Shown piece after piece: positions 9,392-60,986 of a stretch of DNA of 60,986 bases. The position numbers and the translations under genes were made by a program. Origin of the DNA: a virus (Duplodnaviria > Caudoviricetes); IMG/VR virus record IMGVR_UViG_3300033182_001015, positions 1 to 60,986 of that record. The stretch is one strand, 5' to 3'. The notes beneath the pieces were generated by a model. The model saw only the letters and a list, made by a program, of their open reading frames with translations, ran no database searches and was not told the DNA's origin. How positions within the stretch are numbered: position 1 is the first letter of the stretch; the number at the start of each line of letters is the position of its first letter.

Positions 9392-9861
9392 ATATGGGTC
9401 ACCACTGGGACAAAAGATTTCTTCAACTTGCATCTAACATAGCACAGTGGTCTAAAGATCCATCGAGACAAATTGGAGCTGTCGCGATTGGAGAAAATAG
9501 ACAAGTACTTGCTACGGGTTATAATGGATTTCCTCGAGGAATTTACGATACAGATGAGAGATTGACAGATCGCTCCGAAAAATATAAATTTATGGTACAT
9601 GCAGAAATGAATTGTATATACAATGCAACTCAAAACGGTGTATCACTAAATGATACACATCTGTATGTGTACGGATTGCCAGTGTGTCATGAGTGTGCAA
9701 AAGGAATAGTGCAAGTTGGTATATCTCGTGTTATTATGCCAGATGATGTATGGGTTCTCGATGAAAATATTGAGAACGATAAGAAGTGGATCGACAGTTG
9801 GCAATTAACCAAACAAATTTTTACTGAAGGAAATGTAGTTGTTAACACAATCAAGCTATGA
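9385..9861 (+). CDS. cd: dCMP deaminase
   Basis: GYNGFPRG, HAEMN and PVCHEC Zn-binding motifs. Confidence 0.95.
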   Translation: MVNMGHHWDKRFLQLASNIAQWSKDPSRQIGAVAIGENRQVLATGYNGFPRGIYDTDERLTDRSEKYKFMVHAEMNCIYNATQNGVSLNDTHLYVYGLPVCHECAKGIVQVGISRVIMPDDVWVLDENIENDKKWIDSWQLTKQIFTEGNVVVNTIKL

Positions 9862-10273
9862 CAATCCGTGGATACATCTACTTGAGGGTTGGGCATTAGA
9901 ATCAGAACATGTACAAAACTATTACGGTATGGTATATTTGTTAATTAATAAAGAAACGAAGCGCAAGTATATTGGTAAAAAGTTTTTTTGGTCGAAAGTA
10001 ACACGCAGTGTTAAAGGAAAGAAAAAGAAAGTCTTAGTCGAATCAGATTGGAAAAAATACTACGGATCAAATAAAGAACTCAAAGAAGAGCTCGCTAATG
10101 GTGCAGAGTTCGAACGTTATGTAGTTCATTTATGCAAATCAAAAACAGAGTGTGCATACTGGGAAATGGATTATCAGATAAGGTGCGAAGCTCTGTTAAC
10201 AGAAGAATACTATAACCAATTTATTGGTGGGAAGATAAACGGAAAATGGTTGAAGAGAAACCTCATTACGTAG
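9839..10273 (+). CDS. GIY-YIG endonuclease, conserved T4-like type
   Basis: GMVYLLINKETKRKYIGKK...ESDWKKYYGS; YYN at C-terminus. Confidence 0.8.
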   Translation: MLTQSSYDNPWIHLLEGWALESEHVQNYYGMVYLLINKETKRKYIGKKFFWSKVTRSVKGKKKKVLVESDWKKYYGSNKELKEELANGAEFERYVVHLCKSKTECAYWEMDYQIRCEALLTEEYYNQFIGGKINGKWLKRNLIT

Positions 10274-10488: not shown

Positions 10489-10664
10489 TGTTAGATGTAT
10501 GGAGAGTTAAGAAGACTCGCGAGATTGTTTATCCAATTGGCAATCAAGATAATAATTATACCTTATGCTTGTTTCGACACAGGACAAAAACATATAAAGG
10601 TAATTACGGGGATGTACGATCAGTACGAACCGATAATCTGATCAAGGATCGTGAGAATGGCTGA
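10488..10664 (+). CDS. Hypothetical protein
   Basis: TAATG coupling; fills the gap. Confidence 0.55.
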   Translation: MLDVWRVKKTREIVYPIGNQDNNYTLCLFRHRTKTYKGNYGDVRSVRTDNLIKDRENG

Positions 10665-11652
10665 GATCATTAGTGGCGAGTTTGTTCGTAATGAAATAAA
10701 TCAAAAATCTTTTGGTGGTACTGAGCAACTAACAAGTAAAGTAGCTGAAAGACTGCCTAAAGATTTATTGCAAGATTTTCAAATTGTTTCGTCTCGTGTC
10801 AGAGAGCTAGATGAAGATAAGATTCGAATCTTTTGGGCTCATGATTTACCTGGTGATCCCGAATCAGAGTTTCTTGCGACTTATATTGGCCGTAATCAGT
10901 TTCATAAGTATGTGTTTGTTTCTAATTGGCAAATGCAGGGATATATCCAACGCTATGGTCTTAAACCATCTCAATGTGTAGTACTACGTAATTTTATTGA
11001 TCCTATCGAAGAGCACGAAAAACCAGATGATAAGATCAATATCATTTATCATACAACTCCACATCGTGGTTTGAATATTCTAGTACCAGTTTTTAATAAG
11101 CTATGCGAGAAATATGATAATATTCATCTCGATGTGTATTCATCATTTGCTCTTTATGGCTGGGAAGTGCGTGATAAAGAATATGAACAAACATATCAGA
11201 TGATTAAGGATAATCCTCAGTCTACATATCATGGTACTCAGCCGAATGATGTTGTACGTGAAGCATTAAAGAAATCACATATCTTTGCGTATCCAACTAT
11301 TTGGAATGAAACATCATGTCTTTGTTTAATGGAAGCGATGTCAGCTAAAAACCTCTGTGTACATTCTAATTTTGGTGGCATATATGAAACTGCATCACAT
11401 TGGACTAACATGTACCAATATCATGAACATCCGAATTCACATGCATCAGCTTGTTACAATATGTTAGATCTTACTATTGAGAATTATGCACAGATGCAAT
11501 TGAATACTGCACCAACAAAAGTGTACACTGATACCTTTTATAGTTGGGCAAATAGAGAAGCAGAATGGCTAGCACTATTGAATTCACTAAAAGCTGCGGT
11601 CGATGATAGATCAATTCCTAAAGAAACATTTTCGTACTCAACCGTCGCATGA
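10657..11652 (+). CDS. Glycosyltransferase, GT-B fold (GT4-like)
   Basis: GGTE, WAHD, FVSNWQ, TPHRGL, FAYPT.WNETSCLCLMEAM (ExxxxxxxE) motifs. Confidence 0.9.
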   Translation: MAEIISGEFVRNEINQKSFGGTEQLTSKVAERLPKDLLQDFQIVSSRVRELDEDKIRIFWAHDLPGDPESEFLATYIGRNQFHKYVFVSNWQMQGYIQRYGLKPSQCVVLRNFIDPIEEHEKPDDKINIIYHTTPHRGLNILVPVFNKLCEKYDNIHLDVYSSFALYGWEVRDKEYEQTYQMIKDNPQSTYHGTQPNDVVREALKKSHIFAYPTIWNETSCLCLMEAMSAKNLCVHSNFGGIYETASHWTNMYQYHEHPNSHASACYNMLDLTIENYAQMQLNTAPTKVYTDTFYSWANREAEWLALLNSLKAAVDDRSIPKETFSYSTVA

Positions 11653-14487: not shown

Positions 14488-15139
14488 ATTATTTGAACCC
14501 AAAACCCTAAAACGCATCAACGAGGACGGCAAGCGGCTGTACGTTACTGAAAGCGGAGAAAAGTATCCATCAGTAACGTCAGCCCTTGGCGCATTATCGA
14601 GGAAGAAAATATGGGAATGGCGAAAACGTGTGGGCGCGGAGACTGCCAACAAGATCTCAACACAGGCATCGCGCGCAGGTACTGCAGTGCACCAAATTGC
14701 CGAGGACTATATTCTGAATCAGATGAAAGAAGACGCGAATCCGATCGCGCTAAACACTTTCAGAACCATCCAACCTTATCTCGATCAGAACGTGGACGAA
14801 ATCTACGGGGTCGAACTGCAAATGTATTCGGACGAATTAAAAACGGCAGGTACAGCTGATCTCATTTGCCGTTACGAAGGTAAGAATACAATTCTTGATT
14901 TTAAAACATCTAAACGTTACAAGTCTAAAGACGAGATTCACTCGTACTTTATGCAAGGTGCTGCATATGCCACGATGGTCAAAGAACACTATGATATGGA
15001 TATAGATAGAATTGTTATTCTCATGGCTGTCAATGCTGGCGAAAGTGCAATTGTATTTGACGAACCTCTTGAAAATTGGCAACCAATGACACGTAAATTC
15101 TTTGATCTATATCATAAAGGCAAACTAAAGGACTTCTAA
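14456..15139 (+). CDS. PD-(D/E)XK exonuclease (T4-like exonuclease A / Cas4-like)
   Basis: YPSVT, GTAVH, AGTADL, DFKTS, YFMQ motifs; start codon uncertain. Confidence 0.85.
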   Translation: MQEKSSDFALKLFEPKTLKRINEDGKRLYVTESGEKYPSVTSALGALSRKKIWEWRKRVGAETANKISTQASRAGTAVHQIAEDYILNQMKEDANPIALNTFRTIQPYLDQNVDEIYGVELQMYSDELKTAGTADLICRYEGKNTILDFKTSKRYKSKDEIHSYFMQGAAYATMVKEHYDMDIDRIVILMAVNAGESAIVFDEPLENWQPMTRKFFDLYHKGKLKDF

Positions 15140-15783
15140 TGAGAGCTGTACAATATATTGTAATACCCAATGCAATATCTGCTGAACTTTGTGAAAAAGC
15201 TATTGATTTGGGAGATAGTTTAGAACTACGATATGCTACGACTGACGGCGGAAAAGATTCTCCAACTGCGCATGTAAGAAACTCAAGTGTAGAATGGTTT
15301 ATCGAGGATAATTTTAATAGTAAAGAAGATAAAGAAACAATGGTTGAGGTGTATGACGCAGTCGATGGTTGTTTTAATAGAGCTCTTGCTGATTGGGCTA
15401 TGGATGATATTCAAATTGTAGATAGACAGCCATATCAATATACTAATTATCGAAAAGGACAATACTACGATTGGCATCGTGATTCACGTGAAGAGCCATA
15501 TGATACGACTGAATATACCGGTCTACAACGCAAATTTAGTTTAAGCGTATTATTAAATCCGACCGATGAATATGAAGGTGGTAATTTTCAAATAGAAACG
15601 AACTGGCACCACGGTCCACATGAAAATTGGAATAGAGTAGTAACGTTCGATCCAAATCAATATGATATAGGTCAGGGTACTGTCATTATTTTTTGGTCAC
15701 ACTTATATCATCGTGTAGCACCAGTAAGGAAGGGCATACGTAAGTCACTAGTTGCTTGGTATCTTGGTCCGCCCTTCGTTTAA
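15139..15783 (+). CDS. 2OG-Fe(II) oxygenase (prolyl-4-hydroxylase-like)
   Basis: YDWHRD (HxD), RKFSLSVLL, YEGG, HRVAPV.KG.RKSLVAW. Confidence 0.9.
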   Translation: MRAVQYIVIPNAISAELCEKAIDLGDSLELRYATTDGGKDSPTAHVRNSSVEWFIEDNFNSKEDKETMVEVYDAVDGCFNRALADWAMDDIQIVDRQPYQYTNYRKGQYYDWHRDSREEPYDTTEYTGLQRKFSLSVLLNPTDEYEGGNFQIETNWHHGPHENWNRVVTFDPNQYDIGQGTVIIFWSHLYHRVAPVRKGIRKSLVAWYLGPPFV

Positions 15784-29835: not shown

Positions 29836-30000
29836 ATGACGCTCTACAATCATTATAAGCTCAACTTTGACGTAACTCAGTCGCACAACTTCTCAATCAC
29901 AGAAATAAATGATATGATACCTTTCGAAAGAGAGGTATATGTAGATCTTATTATTGAGAAAAATAATAAAGAAAAAGAAGGACCTCAGTTAGAATTTTAA
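29836..30000 (+). CDS. gp51: Baseplate hub assembly catalyst (gp51-like), probably reached by -1 frameshift from gp26
   Basis: Hand-translated MTLYNHYKLNFDVTQSHNFSITEINDMIPFEREVYVDL; MIPFEREVY motif. Confidence 0.85.
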   Translation: MTLYNHYKLNFDVTQSHNFSITEINDMIPFEREVYVDLIIEKNNKEKEGPQLEF

Positions 30001-30435
30001 TCCTAACTCTTTTTCTGTGATAATCGTAAATTCCCATCCTCTATCAGCACAATAACTACGCGCTGCTTGCCATTTAGAAGAATTTACACCCCATGTCCTT
30101 ACTTCGTATAAATACCTCTTAGTAAGATTTTTTTGCGGAGTTGGTTCTACGGTTTCTTTAAATGGTTTAATTTCCACTACAACCGTATCCAGTTTCCCTT
30201 CGCTGTTAATCTTCTTAATCCAAAAATCTGGAAAGTATCGATGAACTCTGCCATCGATTGGTGAACGATACGGAATGATCAGCTCTTCACTTGCCCATTC
30301 CTTAATGCCACTATTGTTGTCGAGATATCTCATGAATAGTAACTCCCACCTACTTCGATAAATAATGTTGGTAGGATCGCCACGATACTTACTCGGATTT
30401 TTAGGTTTGAAGACACCTTTATAAGTTTTCGCCAT
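29989..30435 (-). CDS. gp4: Head completion nuclease (gp4)
   Basis: YKG.FKPKNP.KYRGD, YRSRWE, WASEE, HRYFPDF, EIKP, KW.AA. Confidence 0.95.
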   Translation of the reverse strand: MAKTYKGVFKPKNPSKYRGDPTNIIYRSRWELLFMRYLDNNSGIKEWASEELIIPYRSPIDGRVHRYFPDFWIKKINSEGKLDTVVVEIKPFKETVEPTPQKNLTKRYLYEVRTWGVNSSKWQAARSYCADRGWEFTIITEKELGLKF

Positions 30436-30440
30436 ACACA

Positions 30441-30448
30441 TATTTATA
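30441..30448 (-). promoter_or_regulatory. T4-type late promoter TATAAATA
   Basis: 5 nt before the gp4 ATG at 30435. Confidence 0.75.
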
Positions 30449-30457
30449 GGAATAGAC

Positions 30458-31660
30458 ATGGCAAATGACAATCAAATAAGACCGATAGAAACACAATTAA
30501 AACAAAAGTTTTCTTCGTCTGAAAGAACACAGATAAATTCACTCAAGAATTTAGGCGGTGGATTGCCTTCGAAGGCTGGAGGTATTACGTCGAGTGTTAG
30601 TCAACAAGTAAGTAATATCGACGCTCGACAAAAGTCAGCTATGGAGATAGGAGCAAACCTAGCGAAAAAACTTGAGAGCGCTGGAGCATATCCTAAAACA
30701 GCTGAAAGAGTTATTGCTCCTGCTGTTACATCAACTGTCTATGATAAAATTCCTTTGGCCGAAAAGAGAGGCGATCGAGTTTTAAATAAGCGGATTAATG
30801 TCAGACCTAAAAATCCTCGAAAACAAATTCAAAATACTAAAGATAGATTAGTAGGTGAACAAGATTTAAGATTCGCCGGTTTAGAGTTTCCTACTACTTT
30901 GACGTCAGAAGCGGCGTCATATGTTTATCTTCATTTTCAAATTTATAATCGTGGTACACCAGAATCTGGTGGATCATTTTCTCCAGGAGATAAAATATTT
31001 TTACCTATTCCGGAAAACTTGTCTACTGGTTTTAACATGAGATTTGAAGAAAGAGATACCGGCGCGTTAGGAGATCTTGCTAATGGAGATGCAGTAAGAA
31101 ATGCTATTAAAACTTACAAGAATGTAGGTAGTGTAGGAGAAGCTGTTTCAGGAATAACTGTGGGCGAAGCTCAAGATGCAATTAAAGCTATTGCTCAAAG
31201 ATCTATTTTTGCTGGTTTAAATTCAGTCAGTGAAACATTAGGCGGTATTGCTAGTCAAAACGCTGGCATAGTCAATAACCCGTTGCCTACAGTTTTCTTT
31301 AAAGGTATGGATTTGCGTTCATTTACATGGACATGGAAACTTGTGCCTAAATCATCAGAAGATGCAAGCGCAATCAAAAATATTTTAAAAACTTTACGAA
31401 AAAATGTTTTACCAGAAAAATTAGATGGTGAGACTACATATTTAAAATATCCTAATATGGTTTTGCCAAATGTTTTAGAAGCTGGTGGAGCGTCAAATCT
31501 AGATCTATATGGAAAATTTAAAAAGAGTTCGGTAAAAGAATTGCTTATTAATTATACAGCTGAAGGTACATCAGCATATTTTGTTGATGGTCACCCTGTA
31601 GCTATCAATTTGCAAATTACTTTCCAAGAAATTGAAGCGTATACGAAGGAAGATGCATAA
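30458..31660 (+). CDS. gp48: Baseplate tail-tube cap (gp48)
   Basis: IFLPIP, NP...FKG..LRSFT.TWKLVPKS..DA, NYT, L.ITFQE. Confidence 0.85.
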   Translation: MANDNQIRPIETQLKQKFSSSERTQINSLKNLGGGLPSKAGGITSSVSQQVSNIDARQKSAMEIGANLAKKLESAGAYPKTAERVIAPAVTSTVYDKIPLAEKRGDRVLNKRINVRPKNPRKQIQNTKDRLVGEQDLRFAGLEFPTTLTSEAASYVYLHFQIYNRGTPESGGSFSPGDKIFLPIPENLSTGFNMRFEERDTGALGDLANGDAVRNAIKTYKNVGSVGEAVSGITVGEAQDAIKAIAQRSIFAGLNSVSETLGGIASQNAGIVNNPLPTVFFKGMDLRSFTWTWKLVPKSSEDASAIKNILKTLRKNVLPEKLDGETTYLKYPNMVLPNVLEAGGASNLDLYGKFKKSSVKELLINYTAEGTSAYFVDGHPVAINLQITFQEIEAYTKEDA

Positions 31661-56433: not shown

Positions 56434-57462
56434 ATGGCAACTGCACAACAATTTGATACTCTCGACGGATTAGTAGTCACAGGCGAACTCAATACTGGTA
56501 CTTTGATAACGACTGGAAATGTTGTTGTCGATACAAACGTCCTCTACGTAGACACAGTAAACAATCGTATTGGTATCAATAAAGTTCCTACCGTTGCATT
56601 CGATGTTAATGGTAATGTCAACATCGACGGCGGTACAATCGATGGTCTGTCACAATTAAGTGTTGATAATCTCACACTCAACGGTTCTACTATAACTAGT
56701 ACACAAAATTTATTTTTAACCGCATCTGGTTCTAGTGCTATTGTTGCAAACTCGGGATCAAACGGATTAATTTTACGAGATGCCAATGTAGAATATGGTA
56801 GATTTGTAGAATCTACTGGTAATCTAGTCATTAAGGCTGGCAATCCAGCGACTACCGCATTAACACTTCAATCAGATGGCGACGCAGTTTTCGCAGCTGA
56901 CGTTGCTATGTCGAACGGTACTAAGATCGACTTCGGTTCGGCTATGGACATTACCGCCTCGGCAACTGGTGCAACATTTAGCGCAAATACATATCACAGC
57001 GGTCATATTGTTCACAGCGCGGCTGATCCGGATACACATATTAAATTTAACAATGATCAATTTGTATTAACAGTTGGTAATAGCCAAGTATTAACAGCAA
57101 ATAGCTCGGCTGTTGATATTGGTATCATTTCTGCTACTCAAGTTGTATCAGAAACAGTTGTATACGAGACAGTACAAACAGAAGCTACATTAGGTATTGA
57201 TCTCAATGATGGATCAGCTGTGATATGTACGGCTACTGGCGGTGGTACAGTATCATTTACTATGCCTTCAGGTACGACACCATCGGCTTTTTCATGGACT
57301 GTAAAATTCAATAATTCTGGTACACTTACATGGCCAGCGGCTGTAAAATGGGCTGAAGGACAAGTTCCGCCACCATCAAGCGGTACAGATATATACGCAT
57401 TTACAACATACGATAAAGGTGTAAATATTTATGGTTCACTAGCGATGCGTGATGCATCGTAA
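56434..57462 (+). CDS. Tail fibre protein
   Basis: LYVD..NNRIGIN..P, TWPAAVKW..G..P...GTD...F.T.D.G motifs. Confidence 0.8.
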   Translation: MATAQQFDTLDGLVVTGELNTGTLITTGNVVVDTNVLYVDTVNNRIGINKVPTVAFDVNGNVNIDGGTIDGLSQLSVDNLTLNGSTITSTQNLFLTASGSSAIVANSGSNGLILRDANVEYGRFVESTGNLVIKAGNPATTALTLQSDGDAVFAADVAMSNGTKIDFGSAMDITASATGATFSANTYHSGHIVHSAADPDTHIKFNNDQFVLTVGNSQVLTANSSAVDIGIISATQVVSETVVYETVQTEATLGIDLNDGSAVICTATGGGTVSFTMPSGTTPSAFSWTVKFNNSGTLTWPAAVKWAEGQVPPPSSGTDIYAFTTYDKGVNIYGSLAMRDAS

Positions 57463-57471
57463 GAGGTAGCA

Positions 57472-59142
57472 ATGGCCGGCGCGGGTACAAAAGGATTTTT
57501 AGATAGAACTTGGGCAGAACCGTTTAATGAAACGCGGGATGTAGCTACTCGTAATACACCTATTGATCTACCATACGGAAAACAAATACTCGAAACTACA
57601 TTACGCGGTGGTCGAGGATTTGCACCTGTTATTAAAAATGCATATATCGTTGCACAAAATTATCCGTCGAGAGTTTACATTCAATCTGCTTATCAGATTG
57701 CTGAACCTGCATATAGTGTAACGACGAATTATCCGTCCCGAAATTATTTTCAAAATGCGTACAGTGTAACGACAAACTATCCTACGAGGCAAGTATCTCC
57801 TCAACCTGCGTATCAGGTACAGACAAATTATCCATCTCGGGGTTATTATCAAGGTGCTTATAGTGTAACAACTAATTATCCAACACGACTTCTACATGAT
57901 CAACCAAGCTATCATAATTCTGATAGTTATCCTTCACGATTTCAACAATCTCAACCAAGCTATGCGAACATACAATATTATCCATCGAGACAGGCTGGTT
58001 ATCAACCAGCGTATTCTGTTTCGACATATTATCCAAATCGTGTAACTTATACTGCATATCCGTCACGTTGGCAAAATAATAAGGAGCCAGCGTACGAAAT
58101 AATAGTATATTATCCAGCGAGAAGTAGTGTACAGCCAGGTTATGTTATTATCAACTACACTTATAATTTTTATACTGGCGGATATCTACCTGATGAAGGA
58201 ACTTCATATCCTTCACGGTTTATTACGGAGCCATCATATAGCAATGTTACATATTATCCTGCTCGCGGTGGCTATGTGGGTTCGTATGTTGTCGCTGCAA
58301 ATGAACCTCAATATACGGTTACGACAAATTACCCTACGCGTTCATTGATAGAACCAGCATACAGCAATATTACATATTATCCAACGCGAGCTTTGTATCA
58401 ACCGGCGTATACAATTTATACTGCTTATCCTTCACGTACTCTATATCAGCCATCATATAGTGTAACGACCAATTACCCTGCTCGTAGTTATTTCCAAAAT
58501 GCATATAGTAATGTAGCTTATTATCCATCTCGTAGCTATTTCCAAGCTGCCTATGAGTCGTCAACTTCTTATCCGACGCGTTTCCAACAAAATCAACCTG
58601 CGTATAGTGTAACGACCAATTACCCTGCTCGTAGTTATTTCCAAGATGTATATAATATCACAACATATTATCCAAGCAGATTTGTATATCAACCTGCCTA
58701 TAACAATGTTACATATTATCCATCACGTAATATCACTCAGCCCGCTTATAGTGTAACGACTAATTATCCATCGCGATATACTTACTATCCAGCGAGAAAT
58801 TATAGTCAGCCATCATACGCAATTTATTATTCATATCCTACACGTAACTACACTGGTTTAAATGCTGAAAATACAACATTATCTTTGACGGCAGCTGATG
58901 GTACAACATATACACAAACTGCACCAGCAAGAAATCAAAGTACAACAATTTATACTAATACGGCTGGGACATTCCAAAAAGCTCCGGCCGCTACACCGGT
59001 ATATGCTACATTGTATGCACCTGTTGTTAAACATCCCGCGGCAGCGGTCGCTGTTGGTTCTTATGTTGGTACTTCTCCAGCAAGCAACGTGCTATCTACC
59101 GATAAAGGCTTTATAAATATTAAGTACGACGGTAATCCATAA
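57472..59142 (+). CDS. Tyr/Pro-rich repeat protein (24x YP[S/T/A/N]R), probable fibre-tip/adhesin
   Basis: 16-17 aa unit QPAYSVTTNYPSRxxx; directly follows the fibre genes. Confidence 0.8.
   Translation: MAGAGTKGFLDRTWAEPFNETRDVATRNTPIDLPYGKQILETTLRGGRGFAPVIKNAYIVAQNYPSRVYIQSAYQIAEPAYSVTTNYPSRNYFQNAYSVTTNYPTRQVSPQPAYQVQTNYPSRGYYQGAYSVTTNYPTRLLHDQPSYHNSDSYPSRFQQSQPSYANIQYYPSRQAGYQPAYSVSTYYPNRVTYTAYPSRWQNNKEPAYEIIVYYPARSSVQPGYVIINYTYNFYTGGYLPDEGTSYPSRFITEPSYSNVTYYPARGGYVGSYVVAANEPQYTVTTNYPTRSLIEPAYSNITYYPTRALYQPAYTIYTAYPSRTLYQPSYSVTTNYPARSYFQNAYSNVAYYPSRSYFQAAYESSTSYPTRFQQNQPAYSVTTNYPARSYFQDVYNITTYYPSRFVYQPAYNNVTYYPSRNITQPAYSVTTNYPSRYTYYPARNYSQPSYAIYYSYPTRNYTGLNAENTTLSLTAADGTTYTQTAPARNQSTTIYTNTAGTFQKAPAATPVYATLYAPVVKHPAAAVAVGSYVGTSPASNVLSTDKGFINIKYDGNP
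57658..58845 (+). repeat. Coding tandem repeat of ~48-51 nt (tatagtgtaacgac.aatta.cc)
   Basis: Near-identical DNA copies, e.g. tatagtgtaacgaccaattaccctgctcgtagttatttccaa at ~58456 and ~58603. Confidence 0.85.
59112..59119 (+). promoter_or_regulatory. T4-type late promoter TATAAATA upstream of the oxygenase
   Basis: Exact consensus, 43 nt before ATG 59163. Confidence 0.55.
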
Positions 59143-59162
59143 CATTTTTAGGTGATTATATT

Positions 59163-59768
59163 ATGACTTATCCTTTACGCAATATGCTTTTGCCTCCTCA
59201 TATTTTGCCTCATTTCGGTCAAATGAAGGCTGTCTTCAACGATGAAGAAATCGAAAGAATTCAATTCTTTAAAAAAATCTTAGACTTTTCTCCTGCTGAA
59301 ACTCACTCGTTAAGCGATGATGAAAAACCATTAGAAAACTATCGTGTCTGCGAAGCAGCTACAATGACGATTGATCAAAATACAGAATGGTTATGGAATA
59401 AAATTTCTGATCTATCTGCTCAAGCAAACTATGATTTATTTTTGTATGAAATAGAATATCTCGAAACTTTGCAATATCTAATATATGAAGGCAATGGCAA
59501 AAGTAAATATGATTGGCACTCTGATAGAACCATTGCTGGATATCGAAAGTATGATAGAAAAATTTCTGGTATTTTAATGTTATCTGATCCTTCAGAATAT
59601 GAAGGCGGTAAGTTTTTGATCAACAGATTTAATGAATCTGAAGCTGTTGAATTAGAAAAAGGTGACGTACTATTTTTTGATTCAACATTTAGTCATTGTG
59701 TTGAGCCAGTTCTAAAAGGTCAAAGAGAAGTCATTGTATTTTGGGTCCATGGTCAAACAAAATTATGA
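59163..59768 (+). CDS. 2OG-Fe(II) oxygenase (prolyl-4-hydroxylase-like)
   Basis: YDWHSD (HxD), RKIS...LSDP.EYEGG, HCVEPV.KG.R..IV.W. Confidence 0.9.
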   Translation: MTYPLRNMLLPPHILPHFGQMKAVFNDEEIERIQFFKKILDFSPAETHSLSDDEKPLENYRVCEAATMTIDQNTEWLWNKISDLSAQANYDLFLYEIEYLETLQYLIYEGNGKSKYDWHSDRTIAGYRKYDRKISGILMLSDPSEYEGGKFLINRFNESEAVELEKGDVLFFDSTFSHCVEPVLKGQREVIVFWVHGQTKL

Positions 59769-60469
59769 TTTTTAAAGATGTGATTGAATTCGCTTGTCAT
59801 GAAAATTTATATGGTGCAATTCCTGAGCCAAAACCAGCAAATAAGTTTTTGCCAGAATGGTATAAAAAAATTAAACCGTATTGTGGCCGCGACCAACAAA
59901 AATTTCCTATTCGTACAGTAAAAAAATGTATGCCTGTTCTCGATGCTATGAGTTTAGGATATATTATACCCTTACCTGTCGATATACATTTTATCACGAA
60001 TCATGATTTAAGTTATATTAAGGGTACTGTTCGAACAGGCGAAGGACAATTTGGCACACCAGAAAGGCATGAATTTCGTCAAATAGAAAGTCAGAAATGG
60101 CCTATAAATAATCAAGATCCGATTAAGCTAATAAATCCGTGGTACATTAAAACAAAACCCGGATGGTCATGTTATATCACATCACCTGTAAATCATTTTG
60201 GTTGTCCTTTTACTATTATGTCTGGTGTTGTAGATACAGATAAATATCAATCGTTGATCCAGTTTCCTGCGATTTGGAATATACCGAATTTTGACGACAC
60301 ACTTTTTGCTGGTATGCCAATGGCTCAAGTAATACCATTTAAGCGTAGTAGACAAGATATGGTTTGTCGAGCGTTGACTGAAAAAGAAAGTAGAAATATA
60401 GAAAAAACAAATACTATGTTGGGCTCAAGAGCTGATTGTTATAAAAACAGTATTAGAGCAGAGAGATAA
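59765..60469 (+). CDS. DUF6065-like protein (dUTPase-like beta fold)
   Basis: P.PA.K.LPEWYK, TVKKCMP..DAM..GY, NPW.IKT.PGWS, SGVVDTD, G.P.AQVIPFKR; ATGA overlap with the oxygenase. Confidence 0.7.
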   Translation: MIFKDVIEFACHENLYGAIPEPKPANKFLPEWYKKIKPYCGRDQQKFPIRTVKKCMPVLDAMSLGYIIPLPVDIHFITNHDLSYIKGTVRTGEGQFGTPERHEFRQIESQKWPINNQDPIKLINPWYIKTKPGWSCYITSPVNHFGCPFTIMSGVVDTDKYQSLIQFPAIWNIPNFDDTLFAGMPMAQVIPFKRSRQDMVCRALTEKESRNIEKTNTMLGSRADCYKNSIRAER

Positions 60470-60477
60470 ATAACCTT

Positions 60478-60732
60478 ATGAAGATATGGGATAAAATCAA
60501 ACATAAGATAGATGTATGGCTGCACGATGAGTGGGAAGTCACTATCTATTTTCAGCACCAAACTTTGCAAAAAGATGGTAATATAGTAACTACAAACAAA
60601 CCAAAAACTTATGTATGTAAGAAACTTGTCAAAGTGACTGAGACACATTTTAAGTTGAGAACAACAGATGGTAGATTAGTGGAGATCAAGACAGTTTCGC
60701 CTGTGGGATTTGATGTCGTGCAAACCAAATAG
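60478..60732 (+). CDS. Hypothetical protein
   Basis: GATAAATA late-promoter-like element 5 nt upstream of the ATG. Confidence 0.7.
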   Translation: MKIWDKIKHKIDVWLHDEWEVTIYFQHQTLQKDGNIVTTNKPKTYVCKKLVKVTETHFKLRTTDGRLVEIKTVSPVGFDVVQTK

Positions 60733-60741
60733 GAGAAACAA

Positions 60742-60986
60742 ATGGCTGACGAAGAAAAGAAATTTCATCCAGCAGACACTAATGGTGATGGTAAAGTCAG
60801 TGAAGAAGAGCATGCGATGTATATGGAGTTTAAGAGAAAGGAACTAGAAGATGCAGACGCAATGCGAGATGCACAAAGAAATATGGCGTGGTTCTCTCTT
60901 GCTGGTATGCTTCTGTATCCCGCCATGGTTGTTATTACTGATCTTGCTGGGTTAGAAAAAGCATCGAACATTTTAGGTGATATGGC
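60742..60986 (+). CDS. Membrane protein with EF-hand-like loop, 3'-truncated by window edge
   Basis: AGGAG RBS; MADEEKKFHPADTNGDGKVSEEE...AWFSLAGMLLYPAMVV. Confidence 0.7.
   Translation, partial: MADEEKKFHPADTNGDGKVSEEEHAMYMEFKRKELEDADAMRDAQRNMAWFSLAGMLLYPAMVVITDLAGLEKASNILGDM

Follow-up and report, generated by a model that had tools for sequence, protein, structure and literature searches.

In plants and in the Dictyostelium protein Skp1, hydroxyproline is O-glycosylated after its formation by a prolyl 4-hydroxylase (P4H). A characterized viral precedent is the chlorovirus PBCV-1, for which Eriksson et al. (1999) are said to have described a prolyl 4-hydroxylase and proline-rich repeat proteins. 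The Gp38-type adhesins of phages were reportedly treated by Dunne et al. (2018). In phages of the T2, T6, and S16 types, the gene for Gp38 lies directly after the distal fiber gene, and the conserved termini of Gp38 flank low-complexity motifs and variable segments; its N-terminal domain provides the attachment to the fiber tip, and glycine-rich members exist (PMC12032242, available text). For bacteria, Iyer, Abhiman, de Souza, and Aravind (2010) predicted in silico that co-encoded 2-oxoglutarate (2OG) dioxygenases hydroxylate glycine-rich proteins that resemble collagen or phage tail collars, and that sulfotransferases then act (PMC2938197, available text). Here, we describe a cassette of three genes from a marine tailed phage (Caudoviricetes; IMG/VR record IMGVR_UViG_3300033182_001015): a tyrosine- and proline-rich repeat protein, a 2OG-Fe(II) oxygenase, and a protein that resembles DUF6065. 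The window that we analyzed is the whole record (60,986 nucleotides [nt]; estimated completeness 36%), and all of the cassette's features are on its + strand.

The cassette is one instance of a conserved unit: a fiber with a common tip domain, a repeat protein with a shared N-terminal module (the N-module), a P4H-like oxygenase, and one or more dUTPase-fold proteins, in both gene orders. This unit persists across lineages whose genes are otherwise different. The recurrence of this gene set in numerous uncultured phages suggests that phages chemically modify their own fiber-tip proteins, and the simplest reading of the unit would be a fiber-tip protein along with its dedicated modifying enzymes. 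More specifically, we see about an even chance that the unit carries out late-expressed prolyl hydroxylation of the repeat core of the fiber-tip protein.

The repeat protein (556 amino acids [aa]; 57472..59142) contains exactly 24 YP[STAN]R motifs with a spacing of mostly 16–17 aa, just as the initial annotation had counted. Shuffling the sequence 2,000 times with its composition preserved gave 0.19 motifs on average and never more than 3. The protein is 15.6% tyrosine and 9.5% proline, has 24 aromatic-proline pairs (9.8 expected), and has no cysteine. The 24 units span residues ~58–458 (nt 57643–58845), with an irregular stretch at residues ~218–249, and are flanked by the N-module (residues ~4–57, nt 57481–57642) and a C-terminal module (the C-module; residues 459–556, nt 58846–59139), both of which are kept in relatives. 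At the DNA level, Tandem Repeats Finder identified just one 2-copy array, with a period of 48. Because the DNA copies have diverged, the repeat is old, with its periodicity held by selection at the protein level. No family from Pfam, PHROG, or NCBIfam matched the repeat protein. A tblastn search of 50,697 phage records was also negative, both for this protein and for its relative from locus L053 (the low-complexity filter of BLAST may mask matches), and a search of the ESM Atlas gave no usable match.

Among 5.8 billion clustered proteins, only five were related to the repeat protein, and a family profile search of IMG/VR identified 10 loci, of which 7 were distinct. All 10 of these loci are collinear, with the repeat gene followed by the oxygenase, at 30–50% protein identity. 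The repeat proteins from these loci are 561 to 973 aa long (relatives from protein databases are as short as 461 aa, and the incomplete P0001 has 352 aa), and relatives contain anywhere from 5 to 40 YPxR motifs. The regions that the relatives have in common are the N-terminal ~55 residues and the C-terminal ~100 residues. Within the YPxR motif, proline is conserved in 89% of the aligned cells, tyrosine in 76%, and arginine in 74%; these values are only indicative, as aligning such repeats is difficult. In 6 of the 10 collinear loci, the oxygenase and the DUF-like gene are neighbors, and the other four have a DUF paralog about 1.4 kb downstream.

The oxygenase (201 aa; 59163..59768) matches PF13640 (2OG-FeII_Oxy_3) over residues 104–196, with 53.4 bits as compared to a cutoff of 27 (E = 5.4e-14), and it also matches phrog_61 (E = 1.2e-27). 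Across 51 distinct oxygenases from these cassettes, the HxD...H triad is nearly invariant (H119 in 51, D121 and H178 in 50 each), as is the 2OG-binding R188 (50/51). We compared a profile built from 12 sequences to the sequences in PDB. The top hits were of the PiuC/PKHD type (E = 7e-16), followed by PHD2 (4e-7), the P4H of B. anthracis (7.5e-6), the P4H of PBCV-1 (5c5t; 8e-6), the P4H of Chlamydomonas (1e-5), the alpha subunit of human collagen P4H (3e-5), and P3H1 (0.012). In other words, below the PiuC types, all of the significant solved relatives down to E = 0.012 are prolyl hydroxylases. There were no aspartate or asparagine hydroxylases (AspH or FIH type), lysyl hydroxylases, or AlkB proteins among the PDB matches with E up to 1. 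The oxygenase belongs to the prolyl-hydroxylase-like class (the PKHD/P4H clade) and has intact catalytic residues, in agreement with the initial annotation on both points.

Genes of a collinear clade may be neighbors simply by descent, so we fetched additional loci with the DUF-like gene as the sole bait. Its profile matched at least 578 places in IMG/VR, of which we used the best 80 loci, and clustering the seed DUF proteins at 70% identity gave 35 lineages. The oxygenase precedes the DUF gene in 26 of the 35 lineages, usually with a second DUF paralog after. In 21 of these 26, an open reading frame (ORF) for a repeat protein with the N-module ends 9–98 nt 5' of the oxygenase. Four of the other five lineages (L034, L048, L049, and L051) are cut by contig ends, and the fifth (L071) has a 916-aa tyrosine- and proline-rich ORF in the place of the repeat gene, with an N-module that is visible by eye and was missed by the profile. 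This bears on a point raised by the initial annotation, which had proposed that the three genes form one unit and had asked if the oxygenase/DUF pair might occur equally often without a repeat-protein neighbor. In the loci that we used, it does not.

The full-length profile of the window's family does not match the repeat proteins of the other lineages with the oxygenase first, and the repeat cores of those lineages differ widely: they include NYPYTPASYNTV, YNPTVPGN, NYNVAYPIANQPE, and TGGNYAGESY. In another six lineages, the order is reversed and the DUF gene precedes the oxygenase. One of these is truncated at the end of its contig, and each of the other five includes at least one member with a glycine-rich protein (31–41% glycine) encoded upstream. 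A cultured isolate of Undibacterium also carries the cassette, within a prophage (L110). As for unusual arrangements, L106 has tandem cassettes on one contig (3126-7481: DUF, oxygenase, N-module protein, oxygenase, DUF, DUF), and L032, L056, L059, L061, L064, and L065 have paired N-module repeat genes 5' of a single oxygenase.

Judging from profile comparisons, the repeat protein is a member of an unnamed superfamily, with a shared N-module, a lineage-specific proline-rich core, and a shared C-module. The signature of the N-module, which is about 50 aa long, is L.K/R-T-W ... PYGK ... GRGG, and the signature of the C-module is …TVLGV.FPGG … VP.GGY... The N-module profile, which matches the window's repeat protein with E = 3e-19, found 184 representative clusters with E up to 0.001 among 1.84 billion proteins. 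In all 150 of the listed clusters, the match begins within the first 10 residues. We then considered the part of each protein after the N-module, for the 130 representatives with a length of at least 150 aa. The median composition is 12.5% proline, 11.5% tyrosine, 12.5% glycine, 11.2% asparagine, 11.2% threonine, and 4.1% charged residues. Proline is at least 8% in 123 of the 130, and 104 of the 130 end with a C-module that resembles GG[YF][IV]x[IV]. Tyrosine ranges from 2% to 19% across the superfamily.

Several of the glycine-rich proteins from the loci with DUF then oxygenase are true collagen-like members of the superfamily, with uninterrupted Gly-X-Y runs of up to 113 triplets, of which up to 65 have proline in the Y position, and with almost no tyrosine (~0–2%). 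The four long glycine-rich members that we tested match PF01391 (E = 8e-20 to 1e-42), and the shorter glycine-rich members from L068 and L100 have no match in Pfam. The N-terminal ~50 residues of the collagen-like proteins are homologous to the N-module of the tyrosine/proline forms (hhalign probability 98.5%, E = 3.5e-15 over 51 columns, values that the glycine-rich end may inflate somewhat). Also, the collagen-type profile directly matches 21 tyrosine/proline proteins with E < 0.001. The window's own protein has no Gly-X-Y run of five or more triplets and no match to PF01391.

We noticed a few other features of these proteins and their genes. Seven members (L041, L052, L055, L053, L071, L032, and L056) have a non-repetitive insert of ~60–90 aa in the middle of the protein with at least two cysteines; in L071, the insert includes C-P-x-G-W … K-V-C, twice. 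The repeat protein of L042 (3271-5364; 14% proline, 20% asparagine, and 15% glycine) scores 42 bits for Extensin_1, as compared to a cutoff of 105, and this similarity is probably compositional. In the loci with DUF then oxygenase, an ORF of ~102 aa (M.I.KI.DI.L.TGL…) with no match in Pfam lies alongside the collagen-like gene (L100:5434-5742, L066:4729-5037, L068:2946-3254, and L102:9286-9594 on the minus strand).

In nearly all of the lineages, the gene immediately 5' of the repeat gene encodes a fiber of 124–1229 aa that ends in one domain of ~40 aa, with the signature …AGG..PP.TT.AN..D[IV]W.F.TYDGG.T..G[ST]LA…. The exceptions are L031 and L054, whose fibers have other C-termini. A profile of this fiber-tip domain matched 75 ORFs, and 46 of these are followed within 500 nt by an ORF with a profile-detected N-module; most of the others are then followed by collagen-like ORFs that the profile missed. 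In the window, the fiber gene (342 aa; 56434..57462) matches the phrog_7760/9017 'tail fiber protein' over residues 229–338, and its last ~40 residues (300–341, nt ~57331–57456) match the fiber-tip profile with E = 9e-20.

The DUF6065-like protein has a near full-length match to phrog_7084 (E = 2.9e-48). Its match to PF19541 (DUF6065) covers just residues 132–209, with 22 bits as compared to a gathering cutoff of 26.6 (E = 1.3e-4). Because this score is below the threshold, we describe the protein as "DUF6065-like." The likelier start of the gene is the ATG at 59765, which overlaps the stop codon of the oxygenase as ATGA, as in the relatives; this gives 234 aa (59765..60469), and the TTG at 59741 would give 242 aa. 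An equivalent overlap with the following gene is seen for oxygenases that lack an adjacent DUF gene; hence, such coupling is not peculiar to DUF. The initial annotation had described a translationally coupled DUF6065-like gene. The overlap and the resemblance stand, but the start codon is revised, the Pfam match is below the cutoff, and the coupling is to whichever gene comes next.

The structural model of the DUF-like protein has a mean predicted local distance difference test (pLDDT) score of 75 and a predicted template modeling (pTM) score of 0.66. When we compared this model to known structures with Foldseek, all nine matches with E ≤ 0.001 were dUTPases (best E = 3e-4). With VIA-align (48,161 chains), the top 22 hits were dUTPases, dCTP deaminases, or herpesvirus proteins that are derived from dUTPases. 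These had Z = 10.4 to 6.5, as compared to Z = 4.8 for the next hit, and 131 of 134 residues aligned with 7pwx. A profile of the DUF sequences found nothing among the PDB sequences with E up to 10. The protein contains GVVDTD.Y and AQVIPFKR, which may resemble the catalytic motifs III and IV of dUTPases. By its model, the DUF-like protein has a dUTPase fold with insertions and a C-terminal helix. This fold rules out a second oxygenase or a cupin, which were other candidates for this protein, and it weakens the suggestion that the DUF-like partner is itself a modifying enzyme. A complex prediction for the oxygenase and the DUF-like protein scored 0.05, relative to a mark of 0.32, and weighs neither way. 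The closest homologs of the DUF-like gene in cultured viruses are from haloarchaeal tailed viruses. For instance, in halophage HF1 (L002 48119-49003), the DUF-like gene and the final tail-module genes are convergent, and neither an oxygenase nor an N-module gene is near it within the stretch that we analyzed.

The initial annotation had also assigned the oxygenase its own late promoter, and the conservation of the motif supports this. The motif TATAAATA, which resembles the late promoters of T4, is at 59112..59119, within the last codons of the repeat gene, and begins 51 nt 5' of the ATG of the oxygenase. The same motif is 38–55 nt 5' of the oxygenase in all eight of the collinear loci that we checked and in none of 11 non-collinear loci. 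In seven of the eight, TATAAATA is formed by the codons of a conserved C-terminal F/Y-I-N-I/M. In L005, the C-terminal peptide differs, and the motif sits in the intergenic spacer, so we argue that TATAAATA itself is under selection. The window as a whole contains 13 matches to the motif (7.1 expected), so a single match is weak on its own. As for transcript evidence, the 24 runs that were listed included no RNA holder.

Many of the cassettes contain further genes that could be involved in tailoring. In 13 of the 26 lineages with the oxygenase first, the DUF pair is followed directly by a gene from PF11397, "Glycosyltransferase (GlcNAc)" (E = 2.5e-24 to 5e-33 for the three that we compared to Pfam). 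We take PF11397 to be the family of the N-acetylglucosamine (GlcNAc) transferase that acts on the hydroxyproline of Skp1 and of polypeptide GlcNAc-transferases. Some cassettes contain sulfotransferases (in L047, one separates the oxygenase from the DUF gene), and some contain additional oxygenases from PF13640 or PF13759. The PF11397 and sulfotransferase genes fit a putative protein-modification pathway. For the window's own clade, the link to glycosylation that the initial annotation had raised is not supported: PF11397 is absent from three relatives that are an estimated 89%, 91%, and 54% complete (the same search found the gene in both positive-control loci), and nothing ties the window's GT1-type glycosyltransferase (10651-11652) to the cassette.

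Given its position and architecture, the 556-aa protein would be a tail-fiber-associated protein, most like a tip adhesin of the gp38 type. The oxygenase would be transcribed from its own late promoter as an active prolyl-hydroxylase-like enzyme, and most likely, it would act on the repeat core, hydroxylating prolines there as virions assemble. For the window's phage, the target would be the proline of YPxR and perhaps that of (Q/E)PAY as well. The DUF6065-like dUTPase-fold protein would be a co-evolving accessory. Hydroxylation might stabilize an extended conformation or might provide sites for further modification. We favor prolyl hydroxylation because proline is common to the cores with collagen triplets, PGN, NP, or YPxR, and because the enzyme's characterized relatives are prolyl hydroxylases; X-Pro-Gly is the classical context for the P4H of collagen (PMC3151215, available text). 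The anatomy, conservation, and linkage of the genes, the class of the enzyme, its intact catalytic residues, and the fold of its partner are what the analysis shows. The presence of the repeat protein in virions, its role as the substrate, the choice of proline as the target, and the effect of hydroxylation are all things that we infer.

Several observations weigh against prolyl hydroxylation of the repeats. The AlphaFold2 model of the repeat protein (from 13 sequences) is poor, with a mean pLDDT of 40.2, and does not inform on the fold or on how exposed the prolines are; pLDDT reaches 55–79 only at residues ~14–92 and 421–556, which form short pairs of β-strands. Within the window's own clade, the adjacency of the genes partly reflects shared ancestry. 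We found no member of the repeat family in HTVC008M or Melnitz, which are cultured relatives (both are whole records; this search had no positive control). The nearest solved relatives of the oxygenase, PiuC and YbiX, have no substrate named in the published text that we found. The DUF-like gene also occurs without the cassette in 49 records of haloarchaeal viruses (33–39% identity), in 10 cyanophage records (~24%), and in about 30 cellular genomes, mostly from Alphaproteobacteria; because it occurs alone elsewhere, its role is not bound to a repeat-protein substrate. Finally, asparagine is also abundant in the cores, and what is constant alongside the enzymes is the N- and C-modules and the fiber tip as much as the repeats.

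Since the modules and the tip co-vary with the enzymes, the target could lie there instead. The oxygenase and the dUTPase-fold protein might modify a residue of the N-module, the C-module, or the tip domain, or might act as assembly or maturation factors for attachment. We consider this rather unlikely, but it would explain why the modules and the tip domain stay constant while the repeat cores change completely. Also, dUTPases are homotrimers, which would suit a trimeric fiber. On the other hand, the catalytic residues of the oxygenase are strictly conserved, so a pure chaperone role for it is unlikely. And proline-rich repeats, including true collagen with proline before glycine, are the classical type of P4H substrate (PMC3151215, available text). 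Another side chain of the repeats could also be hydroxylated, and asparagine is the most plausible: at a median of 11.2%, it is about as abundant across the family as proline, the motifs NYP, YNP, and PGN put it beside proline, and the published text that we found does not establish what PiuC-type enzymes act on. We judge this to be improbable, as the solved relatives of the oxygenase include many prolyl hydroxylases and no AspH- or FIH-type enzyme, and as proline is the best-kept position of the window's motif.

A similarly small share of our belief goes to the idea that the oxygenase/DUF pair is an "auxiliary metabolic gene" set, aimed at the host or at metabolism, that rides in the late fiber operon. 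Marine myophages have several 2OG oxygenases with unassigned roles, and the window has a second one from PF13640 at 15139-15783, which lies among replication and repair genes (PhoH and a PD-(D/E)XK nuclease) without a repeat or DUF neighbor. Furthermore, when we fetched loci via the oxygenase, the distant relatives (at most 42% identity) had neither a repeat nor a DUF partner within their flanks, and the DUF-like genes are solitary in the genomes described above. However, the genes stay adjacent in 26 lineages that span different types of phage, whichever of the two orders they have, and in the prophage of a cultured bacterium, while the surrounding genes change, which is not expected from hitch-hiking. 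We give very little credence to a tyrosine-centered chemistry, in which 3,4-dihydroxyphenylalanine (DOPA) or tyrosine cross-links would make the fiber adhesive, like mussel glue. The initial annotation had drawn this analogy, and the tyrosine content of the window's protein and the family's median do fit with it. But it is weak because tyrosine varies across the superfamily, down to 2% in some members and nearly nil in the collagen-like forms with the same enzymes, whereas proline stays. Moreover, 2OG oxygenases of the P4H type hydroxylate aliphatic carbons, not aromatic rings, and general family scans of the proteins from the window and the cassettes found no tyrosinase-like gene. The initial annotation's other alternative, a precursor of ribosomally synthesized and post-translationally modified peptides (RiPPs) with multiple cores that are cleaved at arginine after modification, is harder still to believe. 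The 24 near-identical units each end in arginine and adjoin a modifying enzyme, yet arginine is the least-kept position of the motif (74%), and the repeats of other lineages lack it. The N-module, the conserved C-module of ~100 aa, the protein sizes of up to 1555 aa, and the constant place after the fiber gene do not fit a RiPP either, and the neighborhood has no protease, transporter, or exporter.

Few auxiliary metabolic genes of aquatic phages are counted as often as 2OG-Fe(II) oxygenases and "prolyl 4-hydroxylases," and a 2022 survey states that the viral use of P4H "remains cryptic" (PMC9301287, available text). For one clade of P4H, the cassette offers a concrete candidate substrate, the fiber-associated repeat protein that is encoded immediately upstream. 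If prolyl hydroxylation of the repeats is confirmed, then the receptor-binding structures of phages would undergo hydroxylation after translation, with glycosylation or sulfation in some lineages, and this would be a new layer of host-range determination. It would also provide a first functional context for the DUF6065-like dUTPase-fold proteins and for an unnamed family of low-complexity fiber proteins. The Undibacterium prophage is an entry point for experiments.

The window is from a T4-like myophage that is kin to the pelagimyophages, with weak DNA matches to HTVC008M and Melnitz. It encodes ribonucleotide reductase, gp32, gp59, the late coactivator, and the baseplate proteins gp5, gp25, gp6, and gp8. 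The cassette is a short way 3' of a DUF4815 (VrlC-like) gene, in a region that Zaragoza-Solas et al. termed the hypervariable host recognition cluster (PMC7029224, available text). The series of genes is a 937-aa protein, a 903-aa fiber-like protein, a phrog_644 protein, the 342-aa fiber, the repeat protein, the oxygenase, and the DUF-like gene. Two small genes 3' of the cassette (60742-60984, which runs off the end of the window, and 60478-60732) are much better conserved than their neighbors, with 82–93% and 49–71% identity in relatives, respectively, as compared to 31–45% for the repeat protein. The gene at the end of the window has an EF-hand-like motif (DTNGDGKVS) that scores below the Pfam cutoff, and its homolog in HTVC008M and Melnitz lies between the baseplate-hub genes and the tape measure. 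Elsewhere in the window, a TnsA-like endonuclease ORF (29989-30471) is on the opposite strand (-) within the baseplate module, and a SegE-type GIY-YIG endonuclease (9839-10273, +) is 3' of dCMP deaminase. Both are probably mobile elements of the homing type.

In the literature that we searched, whose scope excluded subscription journals and bioRxiv supplements, we found no description of the phage module, the N-module family, or DUF6065. The prior art is the in-silico prediction for bacterial collagen-like operons and the viral P4H of PBCV-1, so a proline-rich structural protein with a dedicated P4H is already known in kind. Like the operons of Iyer and colleagues, some cassettes contain sulfotransferases. 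In the available text, however, their dioxygenases are from other families, with no pairing of a PF13640 P4H-like enzyme and a dUTPase-fold partner in phage fiber clusters, and the N-module superfamily, the linkage to the fiber tip, and the non-collagen tyrosine/proline forms do not appear (PMC2938197). Syn9 gp43, a distant homolog of the DUF6065-like protein (24% identity), has tryptophan halogenases as neighbors and 2OG oxygenases downstream. The Syn9 stretch that we analyzed contains no N-module or fiber-tip gene, and the available text interprets this dioxygenase/halogenase cluster as secondary-metabolite biosynthesis (PMC2938197).

Like the window's phage, PBCV-1 encodes both a P4H-type 2OG oxygenase and proline-rich repeat proteins, which are its presumed substrates. 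The PBCV-1 enzyme (5c5t) is a significant match to our oxygenase profile (E = 8e-6), but the window's enzyme is closer to the PiuC type (E = 7e-16), and PBCV-1 is a eukaryotic virus with repeats of another type. It is not known to have a fixed gene adjacency, a fiber context, or a dUTPase-fold partner. Animal collagens and the extensins and arabinogalactan proteins of plants are also repetitive, proline-rich structural proteins that are paired with P4H-type enzymes, and the collagen-like members of the superfamily carry X-Pro-Gly sites. The window's protein differs in that it has no Gly-X-Y run and no collagen or extensin match in Pfam, and its near-complete relatives lack PF11397. A broader possibility, which we consider less likely than not, is that hydroxyproline-rich proteins form the fiber tips of many uncultured phages, abundant marine myophages among them, by means of a dedicated late prolyl hydroxylase and a dUTPase-fold protein recruited to protein modification, with a hydroxyproline or polypeptide GlcNAc-transferase glycosylating the product in half of the lineages. 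This would be a viral counterpart of collagen and extensins, and the dUTPase-fold protein would be either a substrate-presenting subunit or an enzyme that depends on a nucleotide or a nucleotide sugar. At least part of the large class of viral genes counted as P4H or 2OG-Fe(II) oxygenase auxiliary metabolic genes would then encode enzymes that tailor the virion and influence which hosts it recognizes. As for Gp38, an adhesin with a polyglycine-II sandwich fold, there is no detectable sequence relationship to the window's repeat protein, which has no Pfam family and a model with a mean pLDDT of 40, and Gp38 is not known to be modified or to travel with an oxygenase. Nevertheless, the repeat gene lies after a fiber gene, its product has conserved termini around a low-complexity core, and both families have glycine-rich members, so by analogy, the Gp38 adhesins appear to be the closest architectural counterpart of the window's repeat protein.

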